A stretch of DNA of 64,000 bases from Acidobacteriota bacterium (GTDB lineage Bacteria > Acidobacteriota > Terriglobia > UBA7540). The position numbers and the translations under genes were made by a program. The stretch's first letter is position 1, and each line of letters opens with the position of its first letter. Shown here one piece after another: positions 46,896 to 61,676 of this stretch. The notes below the pieces were generated by a model. The model saw only the letters and a program-made list of their open reading frames with translations, had not been told where the DNA came from and made no database searches. The stretch lies in contig QHZN01000079.1 of NCBI GenBank assembly GCA_003225365.1, forward strand, positions 2,459-66,458, in the 5' to 3' direction.

Positions 46896-47105
46896 CACAC
46901 ACCTCCAGCCCTGCTTCCGATTATAGCGCAGGATTTCCCGCGGTGGGCGTGACCGTTCAGGGGGACCGCAAACCAATGAATGCGACAAGAAACTCGACAA
47001 GTTCAGCCAATTGCCTCCTCTCCTTCGGCGCGTTAGACTATGCCGGCTGCCGGGTCCTGCCCGCCTTCTTTCGAGGGTGGCTCAGGGTCAGGAAAAGGGG
47101 GGGAA

Positions 47106-48328
47106 ATGCCTGTTCAAACGAAAGAAAAGAACGCGCATGAGGTGGCACTGGAAAACTTTGATATGGCGGCAGATGCGCTCGACCTGAGCAACGATATGCG
47201 GGCTATGATCAAGTATCCAGAAAGGGCGCTACAAGTCGGCTTGCCCGTGCGTATGGATGATGGGCATATCGCTCACTTCGACGGTTTCAGGGTACAGCAC
47301 AACACGGCTCGCGGACCGGCCAAAGGCGGAATTCGCTATCATCCGAACGTCACTAAAGAGGAGGTCATGGCTCTGGCCACCTGGATGACCTGGAAGTGCG
47401 CGGTCGTCAATATACCTTTTGGGGGCGGGAAAGGCGGAGTGTGCTGCAATCCGAAGGAAATGTCGAACGGGGAAATTGAACACCTCACAAGGCGCTACGC
47501 CGCTTCCATCTTGCCGCTCATCGGCCCGCAACAGGACATCCCGGCTCCGGATGTTTACACCAACTCCCAGATCATGGCCTGGATCATGGACACCTACAGC
47601 ATGACCAAGGGGTATTCCGTCCCGGGAGTGGTGACCGGGAAACCCATCAGCCTAGGGGGATCGCTTGGGCGGAGCGAAGCGACCGGACGAGGCGTGTTCA
47701 ATACCATTGAATCCGCCCTGGAACATCTGCGCCTCGCCCTGAAGGGAGCGCGGGTCGCGGTGCAGGGTTTCGGCAATGCGGGGTCCGTGGCGGCACAAAT
47801 GCTCGAAAACCACGAAGCCCGTGTCATCAGCGTGAGCGATTCTCGAAACTAAACCAACACAAAGAACGGACCGGCTCCGTTGCGGGGTTCCCTGGCTCCG
47901 AGCCGATCCGACCCGAGGAGTTGCTCTCGCTCGCATGCGAAATCCTCATCCCGGCGGCTCTGGAAAACACCGTTCACGGAGGAAACGCAGGGCGCGTCCA
48001 GGCGAAGCTGGTCGCCGAAGCGGCCAACGGACCACTCACACCGGAAGCAGATAGAATTTTGGAAGCGAAAGAAACCTTCATTATTCCCGACATTCTCTGT
48101 AACGCCGGCGGGGTGACCGTGTCTTACTTCGAATGGGTGCAGGACGAGCAGCACATGTTCTGGGAGGCACAGGACGTTTACAACCGCTTGGAGCGGGTTA
48201 TGAACGTCGCCTTCAAGGAAGTGCTGCGAATTCACATTGAACAAAAAGTGGGGATGCGCACAGCGGCCAATATGCTGGGCATCGGACGCGTCGCCGAAGC
48301 CACGAAAGCTCGCGGCCTTTATCCCTGA
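47106..48328 (+). pseudogene. gdh: Glutamate dehydrogenase with a small internal deletion and frameshift
   Basis: Frame A (47106..47852) reads ..[62 protein letters not shown] and ends at TAA 47850. GDH homology resumes in another frame at ..[52 protein letters not shown]... About 15 codons expected between VSDS and LxxHK are missing. Confidence 0.8.
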
Positions 48329-54077: not shown

Positions 54078-55154
54078 ATGGCGGACCTCCTCGGAATGAC
54101 ACCGGGGAGAGGTTTTCATCAGACGGCTATGAGACAGCGCCTCGTATCCCCAAGCCTGATTTCCAAGGAAGAGGAGAGCTACAACGTTACCCTGCGCCCT
54201 CCGACTCTCGCGGAATACGTCGGGCAGCGGGAAGTCGTTGAGAAGCTTTCCATTGCGCTCGAAGCCGCGCGCCGGCGCCAGGAGCCCCTCGAGCACGCTT
54301 TGTTCTACGGCCCGCCCGGGCTCGGCAAGACGACGCTCGCCAACATCATCGCCAAGGAAATGGCGACGAAAATTACCACCACCTCCGGCCCCGCGCTCGA
54401 ACGCACCGGCGACCTGATGGGCATTCTCACCAACCTCGCCGAGGGCGATATCCTTTTCATTGACGAGATTCATCGCCTGCCCGCCAACATCGAGGAATTC
54501 CTTTACCCCGCGATGGAAGACTTCCGTGTGGATTTCGTCGTGGACAAGGGCATGTTCGCGAAAACCATCAACGTGCCGCTCAAGCGGTTCACGCTGATCG
54601 GCGCCACGACCCGCGCCGGAAGCCTCTCCTCGCCGTTGCGCAACCGGTTTGGCCTGTTTTATCACCTGGATTTCTATGCCGTCGAACACCTGCGCGAAAT
54701 CGTGCTACGCTCCGCGAAAATCCTCGTCACCCCGATTGACGAAACCGGAGCAGGCGAAATTGCCCGCCGCGCCCGCGGCACGCCCCGCATCGCGAATCGC
54801 CTCTTGCGCCGAGTCCGCGATTTCGCCCAGGTCAAATCCGTGCCCGCCATCTCGGCCGAAGTCGCCCGCCAGGCGCTGGCGCTCGAAGGCGTGGACGAAG
54901 AGGGGTTCGACGACCTCGACCGCAACTTCCTGCTCACCATCGTCCGACAATACAACGGTGGCCCCGTCGGGGTCGAGGCGCTCTCGGCCACGCTCAATGA
55001 GGAAGTCGAGACCCTGGTGGATATGGTCGAGCCATACCTGTTGCAGCAGGGATTTATCAGCCGAACCAAGAGCGGCCGCCGGGCCAACGAGCCGGCCTAC
55101 AAGCACCTGAAGCAGGCGGTCCCGGCGGGTGGAACTGCCAAGCTTTTTGAATGA
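54078..55154 (+). CDS. ruvB: Holliday junction DNA helicase RuvB
   Basis: LRPPTLAEYVGQ, the Walker A motif GPPGLGKTTLA, ILFIDEIHRL and GATTRAG.L..PL..RF. The start is uncertain (ATG 54078 or 54129). Confidence 0.95.
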   Translation: MADLLGMTPGRGFHQTAMRQRLVSPSLISKEEESYNVTLRPPTLAEYVGQREVVEKLSIALEAARRRQEPLEHALFYGPPGLGKTTLANIIAKEMATKITTTSGPALERTGDLMGILTNLAEGDILFIDEIHRLPANIEEFLYPAMEDFRVDFVVDKGMFAKTINVPLKRFTLIGATTRAGSLSSPLRNRFGLFYHLDFYAVEHLREIVLRSAKILVTPIDETGAGEIARRARGTPRIANRLLRRVRDFAQVKSVPAISAEVARQALALEGVDEEGFDDLDRNFLLTIVRQYNGGPVGVEALSATLNEEVETLVDMVEPYLLQQGFISRTKSGRRANEPAYKHLKQAVPAGGTAKLFE

Positions 55155-55207
55155 AAACGCGATCGAGCAGCGCCGAAGCACCTCGGAACTCGCGTCCGGC
55201 CACCGGG

Positions 55208-55702
55208 ATGAAGACGGTTTATCTCTCCTTGGGGTCAAACTTGGGAGACCGCGCAGCGCATTTAGAAGAGGCGATCCGGAGGCTTCCCGATGTGGGCGTC
55301 GTGGTGCGACGGGTCTCGTCGTTTTACAAGACCGAACCCGTCGAGGTTCGCTCGCAGCCGTGGTTCGTTAACTGTGTTGTCGAAGCCGCCACCGAACTAA
55401 TGCCCACGCGTCTGCTCGGCGCGCTCAAGTCGCTTGAACGAACCCTGGGGCGGCAGCCGGGGACTCCGAAGGGCCCGCGTCCGATTGACATTGACATCCT
55501 GCTTTACGAGAATGTTGTCGTACAGTCCCCGGAACTGGAAATCCCTCATTCGCGGCTGGCGGAAAGGCGATTCGTGCTGGCCCCGCTCACGGAGCTCGCT
55601 CCTGAGGCGCGCCACCCGGTCACCGAGCGCACGGTGCTCGAAATGCTTCATGAAACGCCGGATGCGAGCGCCGTCGTCCGCATGAAAGATTGCCGGGAGT
55701 GA
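55208..55702 (+). CDS. folK: 2-amino-4-hydroxy-6-hydroxymethyldihydropteridine pyrophosphokinase
   Basis: VYLSLGSNLGDR...SSFYKTEPV...RPIDIDILLY...IPH.RL.ER.FVL.PL are the HPPK signature blocks. Confidence 0.9.
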   Translation: MKTVYLSLGSNLGDRAAHLEEAIRRLPDVGVVVRRVSSFYKTEPVEVRSQPWFVNCVVEAATELMPTRLLGALKSLERTLGRQPGTPKGPRPIDIDILLYENVVVQSPELEIPHSRLAERRFVLAPLTELAPEARHPVTERTVLEMLHETPDASAVVRMKDCRE

Positions 55703-56460
55703 CCGAGGATTCAGGCGCAGGGGGGTGGCTGGCGAACCTGCTTGGAAAGCCGGCTGGAATCTTCCGACCACCCGAACCTACGCCGGAGCACGCCGTGCCC
55801 AATCCGCCGTCGTTCGAGCCGCCGCGGCTGATCGCAGTCGAAGGCCCTATCCGCGTCGGTAAGACCAGCCTCGCCGACATCCTGGCCGACCGCCTCCACG
55901 CCGAGCGCCTGCGCGACGTCGAGGACAATCCCTTTCTTGGGCCCTTTTATAATGAGAAGCGGGGCGCGGCATTTCAGGCCCAGCTCTATTTTCTGGTCGA
56001 GCGCTTCAACCAGTGGCGCGCTCTGGATGTCGCGTCATCGTCGAGACAAACGATCGTCAGCGATTACCTTTTCGAAAGAGACAAGATTTTTGCGTACCTC
56101 AATTTGAGTGACGCCGAACTCCGGCTCTACGACGAGCTTTACCGTCTTCTCGCTGAACAAGCTCCCGTCCCCGATTTAGTGATATACTTGCAAGCGAAGC
56201 CGGAGGTCTTGCGAAAACGCATCGCGAAAAAGAACGCGGCGATGGAAAGCCGGATCTCCAGGGAATATTTGGAAGAAGTCGTGAAGGCTTACGAACACTT
56301 CTTCTTCCATTACAGGTCCTCTGACCTGCTGGTGGTTGAGACGTCTGAGATCGACTTTGTCGACCGGAACGAAGACTTAGATCAACTGCTCGCGCGATTG
56401 AGCCAGCCGGTCAAAGGTACGCAGTATTTTTTGCCGCTTGGATCCGCGTCCGCGGACTGA
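55690..56460 (+). CDS. Deoxynucleoside kinase family protein (start uncertain)
   Basis: IAVEGPIRVGKTSLADIL is the P-loop. NPFL..FY, QLYFLVERF and the VSDYLFERDKIFA blocks are typical of the dNK/dCK/dGK family. The TTG start overlaps the folK end. Confidence 0.8.
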   Translation: MPGVTEDSGAGGWLANLLGKPAGIFRPPEPTPEHAVPNPPSFEPPRLIAVEGPIRVGKTSLADILADRLHAERLRDVEDNPFLGPFYNEKRGAAFQAQLYFLVERFNQWRALDVASSSRQTIVSDYLFERDKIFAYLNLSDAELRLYDELYRLLAEQAPVPDLVIYLQAKPEVLRKRIAKKNAAMESRISREYLEEVVKAYEHFFFHYRSSDLLVVETSEIDFVDRNEDLDQLLARLSQPVKGTQYFLPLGSASAD

Positions 56461-56749: not shown

Positions 56750-57619
56750 ATGGACCGAAATGAAGCCGTGAGCAAGATCACCATCCCAGGGATTCTGGAG
56801 CGTAAACTACGAGGCGACAGGCTGGCTTGCCTGACCGCCTACGATTACCCTACGGCGCGCCTGGTGGACGAGGCCGGCGTGGACATCATTCTGGTCGGGG
56901 ACTCCCTCGGCGAAGTCGTACTGGGTTACGACTCGACAATTTCTGTGACCGTGGATGAAATCCTGCACCACCTGCGCGCTGTCCGGCGTGGCGTGCGGCG
57001 CGCTCTGCTGGTTGCCGATCTCCCCTATGGCAGCTACCACGTCGGGCGCGAGGAAGCCCTTCGCGTCGCCGTCCAGTACCTCAAGGAAGGCGGGGCGGAA
57101 GCAGTGAAGCTTGAAGGGGGCCGCAAGCGCAGCGCGCTTATCCGGTGTCTGGTGCGGGAAGAGATCCCCGTCATGGGCCATATCGGGTTGACGCCGCAAT
57201 CCATTCATGCCCTCGGAGGCCATCGCGTTCAGGGGAGGACGCTCGAGTCGGCCGGGGAGATCCTTGCCGACGCGCAGGCGGTCGAAGATGCTGGCGCCTT
57301 CGCGCTGGTCCTGGAAGGAATTCCGCGCGAGCTTGCCGGCATCATCACGCGGCGGCTTCGCATTCCGACCATCGGCATCGGAGCCGGGCCCGACTGCGAC
57401 GCGCAGATTCTGGTGCTTCACGACGTCATCGGACTCACGTTCGGCCCGGCGGCCAAATTCGTCCGGAGGTACGCCGATGCCCACGAGGTCTTGCGGACGG
57501 CATGCTCGAGATACCGCGAGGACGTGGCACTCGGCCGGTACCCGAGCGACCAGGAGTCATACCACTGGCCCGCTAGCCTGCGCGAGCACTTCGAGAAGGA
57601 AGCCTCGCGCCTCGCGTGA
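56750..57619 (+). CDS. panB: 3-methyl-2-oxobutanoate hydroxymethyltransferase
   Basis: LTAYDYPTARL...ILVGDSLG.V..GY.ST..VT.DE...H...V.R, KLEGG and MGHIGLTPQS are PanB motifs. Confidence 0.95.
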   Translation: MDRNEAVSKITIPGILERKLRGDRLACLTAYDYPTARLVDEAGVDIILVGDSLGEVVLGYDSTISVTVDEILHHLRAVRRGVRRALLVADLPYGSYHVGREEALRVAVQYLKEGGAEAVKLEGGRKRSALIRCLVREEIPVMGHIGLTPQSIHALGGHRVQGRTLESAGEILADAQAVEDAGAFALVLEGIPRELAGIITRRLRIPTIGIGAGPDCDAQILVLHDVIGLTFGPAAKFVRRYADAHEVLRTACSRYREDVALGRYPSDQESYHWPASLREHFEKEASRLA

Positions 57620-57724: not shown

Positions 57725-59263
57725 ATGCGGGTTGTCAAATCCATTTCGGAAATCCACAGCCTTGCGCGCGACGCACACGCACGGGGGCGATCCTTGGCAC
57801 TGGTCCCCACGATGGGCGCGTTGCACGAAGGCCACTTCTCACTCATCCGCCAAGCCAAACGGCAATGCGATGTCGTCGTGGTCTCGATTTTCGTCAACCC
57901 CAAACAGTTCAACTCTCCCGAGGACCTCACCGATTACCCTCGAGACCTGAACCGTGACCTGGAACTCCTGGAGCCCTTGCGAATTGACGCAGTCTTTGCC
58001 CCCAGCGAAATGGAAATGTATCCGGAGGGATTCTCGACCGGGGTCGTCCCCGGGGAGGTCGCGAAGCCGCTCGAGGGAGAGTTTCGCCCCGGTTACTTTG
58101 CCGGCGTCGCCACGGTGGTATTGGAGTTGTTGAATATCATCAGGCCGGATCTCGCCTACTTCGGCCAGAAAGATTTCCAGCAAACGCTCGTCGTCCGCCG
58201 CATGGTCGAGGACTTGAACCTGGACGTGCGGCTGGTGATATGCCCCACTATGCGCGAAGCGGACGGCCTGGCTTTCAGCTCCCGCAACTCGCGGCTGAAT
58301 CCCGAGGAGCGGAAAGCGGCGACGGTGCTCTACCGGAGCCTCTGCCGCGCCGAAAAATTGGCGCACGGAGGCGAAAGCCTCGCCTCGAAGCTCCTCAAAG
58401 CAATTCGTGAGGTTTTCGCCGGCGAGCCCCTCGCTCGGCTCGAATACGCCGCCGTGGTCGAACCGCAAAATCTGAAGCCGGCCAAGCGCGTGATCTCCGG
58501 GTGCGTGGCCCTCGTCGCCGCGCGGGTGGGAGCCGTACGTTTGATTGACAACCTCATCCTCGGGCCGCTCGGCGCGGCTCCGGAAATGCTTCTTCAACTC
58601 GCGCTCACCTCCTGGCCCATCCTGGATGCCGGAGGCTTGATCCCCGGATTCGAGACCGAAACCACCCGCGTGAAGATTGCGGCTTGCCGCGAGTGCGCCG
58701 CAATCCCCACCATTCTTCTTCCCCCCCGGGAATTCCTGTCCGGCTACGTCAAGATGTATTATCCGGACCGGGGGGCTCCGCGCATCGCCGTCATCGGCCG
58801 CGACGCACCGCTCAGTCCGAGCACCTTCCTTTACCGCCAGCCGGAAACGGGGAACCGATTCGTGGCGGGGCTTTTCGACCTGTTGGGTGTCAAGAGCTTC
58901 ACAGAATTCAAGCAGCGATTTGTGCTGACGGACGCCCTCCGCTGCCATTCCACTGCGCCGCACGTCGCCGAAAAAGGGCTGGCCTACTGTTCGCACCACT
59001 TGCGCGCCGAGCTGAAACTTTTCCCGAACCTCCATACGTTCGTCGTGCTCGGCGACGACGCTTACCTCCAGTTCCAGCGCCACCTGCTCGAGCGCGGCCC
59101 GGGCGGCTTCAAGCCCTTAGACGAGCTGCTCCAGCCGCAGGGCTGGGCGCGCGAGGAGGTGCGCATCCCCACGCTCACCGCGCGACTCCTGAAGGTCTTC
59201 TATTGTTACCATCCGACCTTCGGCTACAAGCGCAGCCCTTCCATCGCTCCGTTCCTCGCCTGA
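57725..59263 (+). CDS. panC: Pantoate--beta-alanine ligase fused to a C-terminal UDG-superfamily-like (family-4-type Fe-S) domain
   Basis: The PanC part covers aa 1 to about 280 (VPTMGALHEGH, SIFVNP.QF, YFGQKDFQQ, SSRN, ..RLIDN). The ORF continues without a stop for about 230 aa and carries C-x2-C, IGRDAP, FVAGLFDLLG, TDALRCH, YCSHHL, VVLGDDA and YHPTF. Confidence 0.85.
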   Translation: MRVVKSISEIHSLARDAHARGRSLALVPTMGALHEGHFSLIRQAKRQCDVVVVSIFVNPKQFNSPEDLTDYPRDLNRDLELLEPLRIDAVFAPSEMEMYPEGFSTGVVPGEVAKPLEGEFRPGYFAGVATVVLELLNIIRPDLAYFGQKDFQQTLVVRRMVEDLNLDVRLVICPTMREADGLAFSSRNSRLNPEERKAATVLYRSLCRAEKLAHGGESLASKLLKAIREVFAGEPLARLEYAAVVEPQNLKPAKRVISGCVALVAARVGAVRLIDNLILGPLGAAPEMLLQLALTSWPILDAGGLIPGFETETTRVKIAACRECAAIPTILLPPREFLSGYVKMYYPDRGAPRIAVIGRDAPLSPSTFLYRQPETGNRFVAGLFDLLGVKSFTEFKQRFVLTDALRCHSTAPHVAEKGLAYCSHHLRAELKLFPNLHTFVVLGDDAYLQFQRHLLERGPGGFKPLDELLQPQGWAREEVRIPTLTARLLKVFYCYHPTFGYKRSPSIAPFLA

Positions 59264-59341: not shown

Positions 59342-61207
59342 CTAATTCGCCGCGACGGGGAGCTCGATACTCGACGCCAGCCGCTTCGAGCGGTAGATGC
59401 GCTCTGTGGCAGGTTGATAGTCGGCGTCCGTGGCCTCGAAAATGTTCGGCACGAACTTTTGGGGATTGCGGTCGATCAGCGGGAACCATGTGCTCTGGAC
59501 TTGGACCATGATCCGGTGGCCCCTCAAGAATGTGTGGTTATTGGTGTGGAGATCAATACGGTATTCGAGCGGCAGATTTGGCGGAATTGGTACCGCCTTC
59601 TCGAAGCTCTTGCGGAAACGCCCCCGGAACACCTCGTCGGCGATGATGAGTTCGTAGCCGGCCAGGGGCATCCCCGCAGCGCAGTTGCACTCTTCGGGCT
59701 TGGCGACGAGCTTCGAGTCCTCGGGGTACACATCAATGAGCTTGACGATCCAGTCGCTGTCCGTGCCGGAGGTCGAAGCGAACACGTCGGCGACGATGTC
59801 ACCGGTGGCCGTCAGGTCCGCCGCGAGCGCGTCGGTCTGGTAACTCAGCACGTCGGGGCGATGCTCCACGAAGCGCTGATCTTCCACCAGCCACAGCGGC
59901 CACTCCGGCCCGGGGTATGTCGGCGTGATGGGCCGGTGGCGATAGGGAATCGGATGAGCAGGGTCGGAGACGTAACTGTCAAATGCGCTCCCCGCCTCGA
60001 CCGGCGCGTCGAATGCGAGTTTGTTTCCCGAGCGGAAATAGAGATTCTTCGTGGTGATTCCCTGGCGCGGCGGCCATGCGTTGTAAGACGCCCACTGGTT
60101 CGTCCCGGTCTGGAACGTCAGCGCCTTCGGCTGCTTCAGTTCGCCTTTGTCCTTCAACCAATAGTCGAACCAAGGGTTGCTGATTTTTTCGTGGTAGTCG
60201 CGGCAGGTGTCTTCGCCGAAATCAATCGTCCCCAAGGCATGGCAGTGCGGGCGCGACCACTGCCCGTGATTCCAAGGGCCGGCGACGAAATAGTTCAGAT
60301 GCCGGTTGTCGCCCTTCTCCATCAACTCGAAGATTTTCTGTGGGCCGTAAAAATCTTCTTGATCCCACCAGCCCGCAACGTTGAGCGTGGGTACGGTTGT
60401 CTCCTTCAAGAACGAGAAGAAGGCCTGTTTCCGCCAATATTCATCGCGGTTAGGGTGCCGGACGAAATCGTTCCAGGTGGGAAGCCGACCGTGAAAGTAA
60501 AGCCGGTTGACGTTCGACAGGGCGCCCAGATTCAAGTACCAGTCGTAAGTGTCGTAGCGATCGAATGCAAAGTGTGTATCGGCTTCCTTCGCGGATTCGA
60601 GCAACGCGGCGTATTCGAACCCGTAGCTAAGGCGGAAGGCGCCGTTGTGGTGAAAATCGTCCCCGAGAAACATGTCGGCGGGCGAGGCGCCTTCAATGGC
60701 AGCCTTGAGCGCGGGGTGAGGATCCACCAGCGCCATCACCACCGTCCATCCCAGGTAAGAAACGCCGAACATCCCTACGCGGCGGTTGTTGTTCGGCAGG
60801 TTTTTCACCAGCCAATCAATCGTGTCGTAGGCGTCCGAGCTTTCGTCTACCGCCTTCCCATCGCTGCGGTCGCGCGGCGGGCGCTGCATGACGAACTCGC
60901 CTTCGGACTTGAAGCGTCCGCGCAGATTCTGGAACACCACAATGTCGTCGGTGCCGGCCGGGCAGCATTCATCCGGCACGCCATACGGCCCGCGCGTGAA
61001 TAGTATAGGCAGCGGCACACTCTGGTCCTTGGGCGTGAAGACCACCGTTTGGAGGCGCACTCCGTCGCGCATCGGGACCATGACTTCCGCGCGCGTGAAG
61101 TTAGGCGGCGGTGGCTGCTGGGCGGCCCAGTTATGGCTCAGGAAGGCCGCGCCCGCTGTCGCAGCCACGGCCGCGGCGATCCATCGCTTGCTGTGGAGAA
61201 TCTTCAA
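59342..61207 (-). CDS. CocE/NonD-family (S15 X-Pro dipeptidyl-peptidase-like) hydrolase, secreted
   Basis: RDGVRLQTVVFTP...PILFTRGPYG..., the nucleophile block GMFGVSYLGW, and a C-terminal beta-sandwich region. TTG 61207 has GAGGGG upstream and is followed by a signal peptide (KILHSKRWIAAAVAATAGAAFLS). The longer ORF extension overlaps bcp. Confidence 0.85.
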   Translation of the reverse strand: MKILHSKRWIAAAVAATAGAAFLSHNWAAQQPPPPNFTRAEVMVPMRDGVRLQTVVFTPKDQSVPLPILFTRGPYGVPDECCPAGTDDIVVFQNLRGRFKSEGEFVMQRPPRDRSDGKAVDESSDAYDTIDWLVKNLPNNNRRVGMFGVSYLGWTVVMALVDPHPALKAAIEGASPADMFLGDDFHHNGAFRLSYGFEYAALLESAKEADTHFAFDRYDTYDWYLNLGALSNVNRLYFHGRLPTWNDFVRHPNRDEYWRKQAFFSFLKETTVPTLNVAGWWDQEDFYGPQKIFELMEKGDNRHLNYFVAGPWNHGQWSRPHCHALGTIDFGEDTCRDYHEKISNPWFDYWLKDKGELKQPKALTFQTGTNQWASYNAWPPRQGITTKNLYFRSGNKLAFDAPVEAGSAFDSYVSDPAHPIPYRHRPITPTYPGPEWPLWLVEDQRFVEHRPDVLSYQTDALAADLTATGDIVADVFASTSGTDSDWIVKLIDVYPEDSKLVAKPEECNCAAGMPLAGYELIIADEVFRGRFRKSFEKAVPIPPNLPLEYRIDLHTNNHTFLRGHRIMVQVQSTWFPLIDRNPQKFVPNIFEATDADYQPATERIYRSKRLASSIELPVAAN

Positions 61208-61217
61208 TAGACACCCC

Positions 61218-61676
61218 TCAGGGCTTAAGTGCCTGGAGCACTTCGCGAATGTGGCCGTCCACTCTGACCTTCGGAAATATGCGCACGATGCGCCCGTCGG
61301 CGTCCAGGATATATGTCGTTCGCACGATCCCCATTTTCTTGACACCGTACATGTTCTTTTCCTGCCAGACGCCGTAAGCCTCGAGGGCTTTGTGCGAGGG
61401 GTCGCCGGCCAGCGGGAAATTGAGCTGGTATTTGTCACGGAACTTGGCGAGCTCTTCCACGGAGTCGGCACTTATGCCGAGCACGCTTGCGCCAAGCTTT
61501 TCCATTTCCTTATGGGCGTCCCGAAACTCGGTCGCCTCAGCGGTTCAACCCGGCGTGTCCGCCTTTGGGAAAAAGTAGAGCACCAGTTTCTTTCCCCGAA
61601 AATCTTTGAGGGAGACATTGCGGCCAGAGTCCGCGGGCAGCGAAAAATCGGGAGCAGCATCTCCTGGATTCAGCAT
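61218..61676 (-). CDS. bcp: Bcp/PrxQ-type peroxiredoxin with in-frame TGA (61545..61547) at the peroxidatic Cys position; candidate selenoprotein
   Basis: The minus-strand translation MLNPGDAAPDFSLPADSGRNVSLKDFRGKKLVLYFFPKADTPG-U-TAEATEFRDAHKEMEKLGASVLGISADS...YGVWQEK...ILDADGRI aligns along its full length with Bcp (YFYPKxxTPGCTxxACxxRD). Both halves are in the same frame. Confidence 0.75.
61515..61536 (-). promoter_or_regulatory. SECIS-like hairpin downstream of the in-frame UGA of bcp
   Basis: The mRNA reads UGA-ACCGCUGA-GGCG-A-CCG-AGUUU-CGG-GA-CGCC. This gives a 4-bp lower stem, an internal loop, a 3-bp upper stem and an apical loop containing G, about 17 nt from the UGA. Confidence 0.5.

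Follow-up and report, generated by a model that had tools for sequence, protein, structure and literature searches.

A pantothenate synthetase fused to a divergent, putatively iron-sulfur-binding domain of the uracil-DNA glycosylase superfamily in Acidobacteriota

Why does a gene for pantothenate synthetase continue far past the end of its enzyme, and what does the additional part encode? The question is raised by panC in a stretch of 64,000 nucleotides (nt) from a soil bacterium of the Acidobacteriota (contig QHZN01000079.1 of assembly GCA_003225365.1, positions 2,459 to 66,458 of the forward strand), which we analyzed as a whole and refer to as the window. In the open reading frame (ORF) listing of the window, positions 57725..59263 of the forward strand are a single ORF of 512 amino acids (aa) with an ATG start. 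An earlier description of this DNA, made by a model from the letters alone (the sequence-only reading), had proposed that panC is fused here in frame to a domain resembling the family 4 uracil-DNA glycosylases (UDGs), with cysteines for an iron-sulfur (Fe-S) cluster. The product can be divided into three parts.

57725..58561, forward strand: PanC (pantoate--beta-alanine ligase) module, aa 1-279, assigned by PF02569, TIGR00018, and conserved motifs.
58562..58672, forward strand: linker, aa 280-316, a conserved amphipathic helix followed by a variable loop modeled with low confidence.
58673..59260, forward strand: UDG-superfamily alpha/beta domain, aa 317-512, assigned by the structure model, Foldseek, Pfam, and hhalign.

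The N-terminal module is an ordinary, intact pantothenate synthetase. Pfam PF02569 matches aa 3-278 along positions 2-268 of its 268 (E value of 1.6e-101), the NCBIfam equivalog TIGR00018 matches aa 1-279 with 309.5 bits against a cutoff of 212.75, and the active-site motifs, the nucleotidyltransferase motif H34-x-G-H37 and the segments G147-Q-K-D150 and S185-S-R-N188, are intact. Among 103 close full-length homologues, to which residue conservation refers throughout unless species loci are named, H34, H37, G147-Q-K-D150, S185, and R187 are invariant, while S186 and N188 are conserved in at least 90%. The ORF does run past the normal PanC C terminus near aa 278, as had been read from the letters: the two profiles end at aa 278 and 279, and the frame stays open for another 233 codons with no stop in the sequence.

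The fusion is also found well outside the window. With one genome scanned for each GTDB species, 70 loci with the extension were found; each was checked by script, and the identities in the extension range from 43 to 89%. PanC (about aa 1-280) and the extension share one open frame in every locus whose upstream DNA is intact (64/64); the remaining loci are cut by contig ends, and L070, the sole broken case, carries frameshifts that include one inside PanC itself. About 68 species-level genomes carry the fusion, in one acidobacterial (Terriglobia) lineage. In a search with the full-length protein, proteins of ~512 aa make up at least 120 clusters (90% identity), and the identical 512-aa protein is present on 11 contigs, of which the 8 shown come from 8 different metagenome samples. 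When the extension alone was the query, 49 proteins were found at 47-65% identity, many of them carrying a PanC tail; all named matches belong to Terriglobia or to metagenome-assembled genomes of Acidobacteriota, and the others are from metagenomes. Both halves are under similar purifying selection. Their ratios of nonsynonymous to synonymous substitution (dN/dS) are ~0.2 (compared with L003, the closest relative, the extension has 0.22 and PanC has 0.21), and the mean pairwise identities of PanC, linker, and extension in the 103 homologues are 67, 63, and 62%, respectively. L003 itself (DASWCI010000191.1, 2805 bp; 89% identity in the extension) is on a contig binned as Gemmatimonadaceae, which is probably a binning error, as the contig is only 2.8 kb long and the other 69 loci are all from Terriglobia or Acidobacteriota.

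Several database entries list the C-terminal domain as if it stood alone. For L001 (JARRJI010000080.1, 4001..4531) and L002 (JBOGJT010000113.1, 4001..4717), the public annotation consists of only the C-terminal 176 and 238 aa, respectively, named "uracil-DNA glycosylase family protein," with no panC called; the DNA at these loci encodes continuous PanC-UDG-like ORFs of 518 and 514 aa. The fusion thus seems to be misannotated systematically. The entries P0041 and P0037 were rejected as stand-alone domains, since the same frame runs through PanC (ORFs of 518 and 514 aa) and no separate panC is called, and so were P0040, P0044, and P0045, which start at an internal Met of the same alignment. As for separate expression of the domain, a promoter and terminator scan was empty at the PanC-extension junction, and Met288 is not conserved, i.e., the junction has no conserved start codon. 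The sequence-only reading had proposed a survey of related genomes and had named a stop codon after PanC in the orthologues as a finding that would speak against a fusion. The survey gave one continuous ORF in all 64 intact loci, none with such a stop, and the stand-alone entries are annotation truncations of ORFs of 514-518 aa. We consider it confirmed that the fusion is real and old, and not the product of a frameshift or of assembly.

The fold of the extension can be assigned with good support. An AF2 model of the domain (pLDDT of 82.5, pTM of 0.81) has flanking helices around four parallel strands (354-358, 399-403, 438-442, and 488-494), and Foldseek places it next to the UDGs: the PDB matches come in the order 2D3Y, 1UI0/1UI1, BdiUNG, 3IKB, vaccinia D4, and TDG, the top 15 are all from the UDG superfamily (probabilities of up to 1.0, TM scores of 0.4-0.5), and UdgX appears at rank 25. 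In the viral library the best matches are proteins resembling UDGs and, in phage DNA polymerases, N-terminal domains of UDG type (lowest E value of 5.3e-5). The Pfam profile PF03167 detects 19 of the 22 family members at an E value of ≤0.01 (best, 5.3e-9), the window sequence being below the gathering score. A profile of the family, searched against PDB sequences, recovers only 2D3Y (E value of 0.0077), over the segment with the last two cysteines. The hhalign comparison with 2D3Y reaches a probability of 72% and an E value of 3.4e-5 over 149 columns, which include the CxxC, motif A, strand 2, and both later cysteines; against 1UI0 the E value is 0.19, yet the motifs fall in the same register. 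The Thermus thermophilus sequences used in these alignments (2D3Y and 1UI0) were checked to be 100% identical to the PDB chains. The UDG-type fold that had been suspected is therefore recovered both by profile and by structure, and membership of the UDG superfamily is well supported, with family 5 (2D3Y) as the closest solved relative. The label "family-4-like" holds for the superfamily and the Fe-S cysteines and fails for the family, since the nearest solved structure is of family 5 and membership in family 4 was rejected on the nonsignificant 1UI0 comparison. We would describe the domain as an Fe-S clade of its own within the UDG superfamily, bound to PanC and outside every defined UDG family.

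The residues that set this clade apart are found in five segments.

58685..58696, forward strand: C321-R-E-C324, the first two putative [4Fe-4S] ligands (family motif C-R-[DEN]-C-A-A, 103/103).
58796..58810, forward strand: motif-A equivalent G358-R-D-A-P362, in the loop after strand 1, with Asp third.
58925..58948, forward strand: strand 2 and the third Cys, L-T-D403-A-L-R-C407-H408, placed by alignment with 1UI0 and 2D3Y.
58988..58990, forward strand: C422, the fourth putative [4Fe-4S] ligand, invariant (103/103), with C407-x14-C422 equal to C115-x14-C130 of 2D3Y.
59210..59242, forward strand: motif-B equivalent H496-P-T-F-G-Y-K-R-S-P-S506, in the loop after strand 4.

C321, C324, C407, and C422 are invariant (103/103) and align with C13, C16, C115, and C130 of 2D3Y, as well as with C13, C16, C84, and C100 of 1UI0, there with one register offset in hhalign. 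Motif A has the consensus G-R-D-A/S-P (R in 103/103, D in 100/103, and P in 103/103) and aligns column for column with GEGPG of 1UI0 and GLAPG of 2D3Y, so that Arg359 sits at the position of the catalytic Glu of family 4. On strand 2, Asp403 aligns with N80 of 1UI0 (ITN), the uracil-reading Asn of that enzyme, and with an Ala of 2D3Y (LTA). D403, C407, and H408 are present in every tabulated species locus; of the close homologues, all have H408, and at position 403, D is found in 95, H in 7, and Q in 1. H496 and P497 of motif B do not vary, while Y501, R503, S504, P505, and S506 are conserved in at least 90%. The most conserved positions of the domain are of catalytic type (D360, D403, H408, H496-P497, Y370, and the four cysteines). 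Among the species loci, a change of R359 to Gly co-varies with a change of D445 to Tyr; this suggests that a salt bridge joins the loops that follow strands 1 and 3. An unusually acidic pocket, with D360, D403, E444, and D445 as a metal or cation site, was considered and dropped, because with this co-variation the salt bridge is likelier.

All the strings that the sequence-only reading had quoted are where it placed them (C321-R-E-C324, IAVIGRDAP at 354-362, FVAGLFDLLG at 379-388, VLTDALRC407H, YC422SHHL, FVVLGDDA, and YCYHPTF at 493-499), and most of the meanings given to them hold. IAVIGRDAP is at motif A, by its alignment with GEGPG and GLAPG; VLTDALRC407H is the segment of strand 2 and the third Cys, but with Asp403 where family 4 has Asn; and YCYHPTF is at motif B, as HPTFGYKRSPS aligns with HPAYLLRNPS of 1UI0. 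For FVAGLFDLLG, which had been likened to PFVGxAGxLL, the alignment with solved UDGs does not support a match to the stacking Phe of family 4: F379 aligns with the helix after the "RPF" stacking Phe and not with that Phe. The spacing C-x2-C-x82-C-x14-C was counted correctly; its last gap of x14, read as a family 4 pattern, is that of family 5 (2D3Y), and 1UI0 of family 4 has x15.

The link between both modules appears to be partly ordered and partly flexible. The full-length model (pLDDT of 88.8, pTM of 0.72) consists of PanC, a helix at 286-295, a loop at 298-302, and the UDG-like domain. The helix belongs to the segment GPxGxxPEMLLQLALT, in which L289, L290, Q291, A293, and L294 are conserved in at least 90%; it has low confidence in the domain-only model and higher confidence with PanC present, which indicates that it probably packs on PanC. 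The loop has a pLDDT of <50 in the full-length model, and the linker looks flexible there.

In sequence space the domain is isolated. An exhaustive phmmer search of 1.84 billion cluster representatives gave 24 matches, all of them members or fragments of the PanC-fused family, and a profile search of 5.8 billion proteins at an E value of ≤10 gave 39, again only from this family and with no bridge to canonical UDGs; at this scale HMMER makes no link to family 5 either. NCBIfam, PADLOC, and PHROGs have no match for the C-terminal domain. In the single-sequence phmmer search against the PDB the only match was MBD3 (E value of 1.2), which was discarded as spurious. The domain exists only as the C terminus of PanC, in one acidobacterial lineage. 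In databases these proteins are named only "pantoate--beta-alanine ligase" or, when truncated, "uracil-DNA glycosylase family protein." Our literature search found nothing that links PanC or pantothenate synthetase to a UDG domain and no paper describing such a fusion, which agrees with the earlier impression that it was not previously known. What is new, then, is a motif-divergent Fe-S clade of the UDG superfamily together with a fusion partner that we found described nowhere.

Regarding the function, we tentatively favor, with a rough probability of 0.45, a DNA glycosylase-type module of non-uracil specificity that would act independently of PanC. The unbroken ORF, its conservation, the relationship to the UDG superfamily, the pattern of motifs, and the purifying selection are shown by the data; the Fe-S cluster, the binding of DNA, catalysis, the substrate, and the independence from PanC are what we infer. 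The UDG-like module would bind nucleic acid and flip out a base, to be cleaved or tightly held in a pocket at the four-stranded sheet's C-terminal edge. The four invariant cysteines would be the ligands of a structural [4Fe-4S] cluster of the kind that both family 4 and family 5 carry (PMC4787834). Asp360, at the third position of motif A, and His496 of motif B would be the likely catalytic pair. Asp360 is a candidate because families 1-3 carry a catalytic Asp or Asn at its position. In family 2 motif A is GINPG, with Asn third. Family 1 has Asp there (GQDPY) and family 3 has Asn (GMNPG) (PMC4787834). The doubt raised earlier about uracil excision, on the grounds of an atypical motif A, is justified, as GRDAP fits no family consensus and the uracil-reading Asn is also replaced. 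With Asp403 at that site the target is probably not uracil, and a base with hydrogen-bond donors or a positive charge (cytosine-type, otherwise aminated or alkylated) would be likelier. An Asn-to-Asp change at the corresponding site of family 1 UNG (E. coli N123D) is reported to shift specificity from uracil to cytosine (PMC3989344). We also count for this reading that conservation is highest at the positions of catalytic type, that the linker looks flexible, and that the domain is basic, resembling DNA-binding UDGs (isoelectric points [pI] of 8.8 as the median of the domain core and 9.4 in the window, compared with 9.06 in TthUDGA). We presume a single ancestral gene fusion in a Terriglobia lineage, followed by vertical inheritance, and the fusion would provide co-expression rather than a shared chemical step.

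Several observations weigh against this interpretation. The window domain scores below the gathering score of PF03167 (21.1 against 24.3 bits; E value of 3.6e-4), the structural matches are only moderate (TM scores of ~0.5 and E values of ~2e-3 with Foldseek against the PDB), and the domain satisfies the motif definitions of neither family 4 nor family 5. Nor is the Asp in motif A universal: Cys replaces it in 14 species loci, which form a divergent subclade, His in 1, and Gly in 1. The loop after strand 3, which touches a DNA phosphate in family 1, is acidic here (E/D444 and D445), although D445 may simply pair with R359. UDGs are monomers and PanC is a dimer. Last, that the domain is never found without PanC hints at a functional dependence on PanC, which would be unexpected for a self-sufficient repair enzyme.

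This obligate fusion, with no stand-alone relatives in the searches, is also the first argument for an alternative that we consider unlikely, in which the UDG-fold pocket has been reused for a free small molecule of pantothenate or coenzyme A (CoA) metabolism and the domain is a regulatory or auxiliary module of PanC that does not act on DNA. The candidate ligands would be a pyrimidine base or a cytosine or uridine nucleotide, which would echo the cyanobacterial fusion of PanC with cytidylate kinase, a known case of PanC joined to an enzyme of cytidine nucleotides (NCBIfam NF010004). The far divergence from the DNA-acting UDGs would be expected after a change of function. Asp403 in place of Asn fits as well, since the N-to-D change of E. 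coli UNG N123D is reported to give cytosine recognition (PMC3989344). The conserved linker helix and the pTM of 0.72, which is above a rough estimate for two freely oriented domains, also count for it. On the other hand, the sequence points to no pantothenate-related ligand, disorder is predicted for the loop at 298-302, the basic character is shared with DNA-binding UDGs, and the motif-B loop keeps a conserved Tyr, Arg, and Ser-Pro-Ser that resemble a DNA-intercalation loop. In addition, we know of no member of the UDG superfamily with a non-nucleic-acid substrate, so this small-molecule role would lack a precedent.

Just as doubtful is that the domain is a catalytically dead Fe-S module, which could bind lesions or DNA without excision, similarly to UdgX, or serve as a redox-sensing, iron-sensing, or structural appendage of PanC. 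The residues D75 and N120 of family 5 are catalytic, and they have no conserved counterparts in the fused family. Motif A lies outside every catalytic consensus, its third position being D, C, H, or G, and UdgX shows that an Fe-S protein of UDG fold can bind without turnover (PMC4787834). But D360 (100/103), D403, and H496 are very strongly conserved, the dN/dS of the extension equals that of PanC, and family 5 is active although its motif A has no polar residue (PMC4787834). Quite improbable, in our view, is a recruitment of the UDG fold outside DNA repair as such, in which the domain would bind or hydrolyze a free pyrimidine or a cytosine-type nucleotide, or sense redox state or iron, and in this way, by its fixed link to PanC, control or feed pantothenate and CoA synthesis; if true, it would be the first metabolic role of the UDG superfamily and the second independent link between PanC and cytidine nucleotides, after the cyanobacterial PanC-cytidylate kinase. 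We practically discard an artefact, in which a missed stop, a frameshift, or the chimeric assembly of panC with a separate downstream udg gene would have produced the long ORF: the entries that could suggest it (P0037, P0040, and P0041, in which only the C-terminal part is listed, under the name "uracil-DNA glycosylase family protein") lie within the continuous ORFs of 514-518 aa, 64 independent species loci are all in frame, the identical protein recurs on 11 contigs with 8 different samples among the 8 shown, and the only broken locus, L070, is frameshifted inside PanC too.

If the favored glycosylase reading is right, the domain would represent a new Fe-S UDG family that combines a scaffold like that of family 5, an Asp in motif A as in family 1, and a natural Asp at the base-reading site, the very change that engineers make so that UNG excises cytosine. 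A natural enzyme of the Asp403 type could reveal a new lesion specificity and would be of interest for glycosylase base editors. If the domain serves PanC instead, the UDG fold would for the first time be seen in a role away from DNA, and CoA synthesis would have a new point of control. More than 100 database clusters named only as PanC or as a truncated UDG are really a two-domain protein, common in soil and peat Terriglobia.

The genes around panC are those of a conserved neighborhood, with panB directly upstream.

56750..57619, forward strand: panB (ketopantoate hydroxymethyltransferase), PF02548 with an E value of 2.8e-106.

The order ruvB-folK-deoxynucleoside kinase-panB-panC::UDG-like is common to the window, L001, and L002, and gatB is nearby in the window and L001. 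In the window the genes ruvB, folK (HPPK), and deoxynucleoside kinase (54078..56460, forward strand) have stop/start overlaps at 55151/55154 and 55690/55702, which suggest translational coupling.

Other observations concern further genes of the window. A Bcp/PrxQ peroxiredoxin gene (61218..61676, reverse strand) has an in-frame TGA at 61545..61547, exactly at the peroxidatic Cys (YFFPKADTPG-TGA-TAEA), and for this reason the ORF listing shows only its C-terminal 95 aa. The same codon is TGA in 45 of the 47 related peroxiredoxin loci next to panC::UDG-like and TGC (Cys) in the other 2, and a conserved hairpin (CCAGTTC-N15-GAACTGG in most loci) follows ~17 nt 3' of the TGA. The peroxiredoxin is probably a selenocysteine protein with a bacterial selenocysteine insertion sequence (SECIS) element, although Rfam at gathering thresholds had no match in the window, this hairpin included. 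On the same strand, the listed ORF of an S15 X-Pro dipeptidyl-peptidase (59342..61471, 709 aa) overlaps the peroxiredoxin gene; its true start is further downstream, given that the gene calls on identical contigs are of 621 or 576 aa. A glutamate/leucine dehydrogenase gene is split into two forward-strand ORFs in different frames (47040..47852 and 47921..48328), with ~40 profile positions absent between them and the frame change at ~47850-47920, and is either a pseudogene caused by a frameshift or a deletion or the result of faulty assembly.

Among known systems, the fused domain is most similar to the family 5 enzyme UdgB of T. thermophilus (TTUDGB, 2D3Y), the top match by PDB profile, hhalign, and Foldseek (22% identity, TM scores of 0.50-0.52). 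Both have the alpha/beta UDG fold, the pattern C-x2-C...C-x14-C, a long insert between the CxxC and motif A, and a similar strand-2 segment, "LT.A.RC." The sequence relationship is weak (hhalign, 72% and E value of 3.4e-5; PDB hmmsearch, E value of 0.0077), at about the distance between families. Family 5 is defined by a motif A of GLAPA, without a polar residue, and a motif B of HPSPLN (PMC4787834). Here, motif A is GRDAP, with Arg and Asp in place of Leu and Ala of 2D3Y, and motif B is HPT(F/Y)GYKRSPS, which keeps the His-Pro (2D3Y itself has YHVSRQN). Asp403 and H408 each stand where family 5 has Ala, the counterparts of D75 and N120 are not conserved, and there is an extra insert at ~aa 455-473, in addition to the constant fusion to PanC.

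Family 4 UdgA of T. thermophilus (TTUDGA, 1UI0/1UI1) is the second-best structural match and shares the fold, the Fe-S cysteine pattern, an N-terminal helix ending in CxxC, and a His-Pro followed by a basic, Ser/Pro-rich loop (HPAYLLRNPS compared with HPTFGYKRSPS). The family is defined by GE(A/G)PG in motif A and HPAAVL in motif B (PMC4787834). The fused domain lacks GE(A/G)PG, has Arg359 at the catalytic Glu, Asp403 for Asn80, and x14 rather than x15 before the last Cys; in motif B, the conserved H496-P497-T498 falls on HPA of 1UI0 in the alignment, while the rest differs. Family 1 UNG has in common with it the Asp at the third position of motif A (G-x-D) and the His in motif B. Natural family 1 enzymes carry Asn at the base-reading position, where the fused family has the Asp of the engineered Asn-to-Asp UNG variants; one of these, human UNG N204D, reportedly excises cytosine. 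Family 1 differs in having no Fe-S cluster, and no sequence similarity is detectable beyond the fold.

As fusions, two systems are comparable. The cyanobacterial PanC/(d)CMP kinase (NF010004) also carries a nucleotide-related extra domain at the C terminus of PanC, in a protein of ~510 aa, but the extra domain is a P-loop cytidylate kinase and not a UDG fold. This is the PanC fusion that the sequence-only reading had named, and the window protein does not belong to it: NF010004 gives 293.6 bits against a cutoff of 524, and only profile positions 3-281 of 514, the PanC half, are matched. The other comparable system is that of the UDG-like domains on phage and bacterial family A DNA polymerases (SPO1-type; UdgX relatives; 9QHS), in which a family 4-like UDG is fused to a larger enzyme and which are structural neighbors of the fused domain in the viral library. 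There, the partner is a DNA enzyme and the functional link is obvious, whereas in the Terriglobia the partner is a ligase of vitamin biosynthesis.

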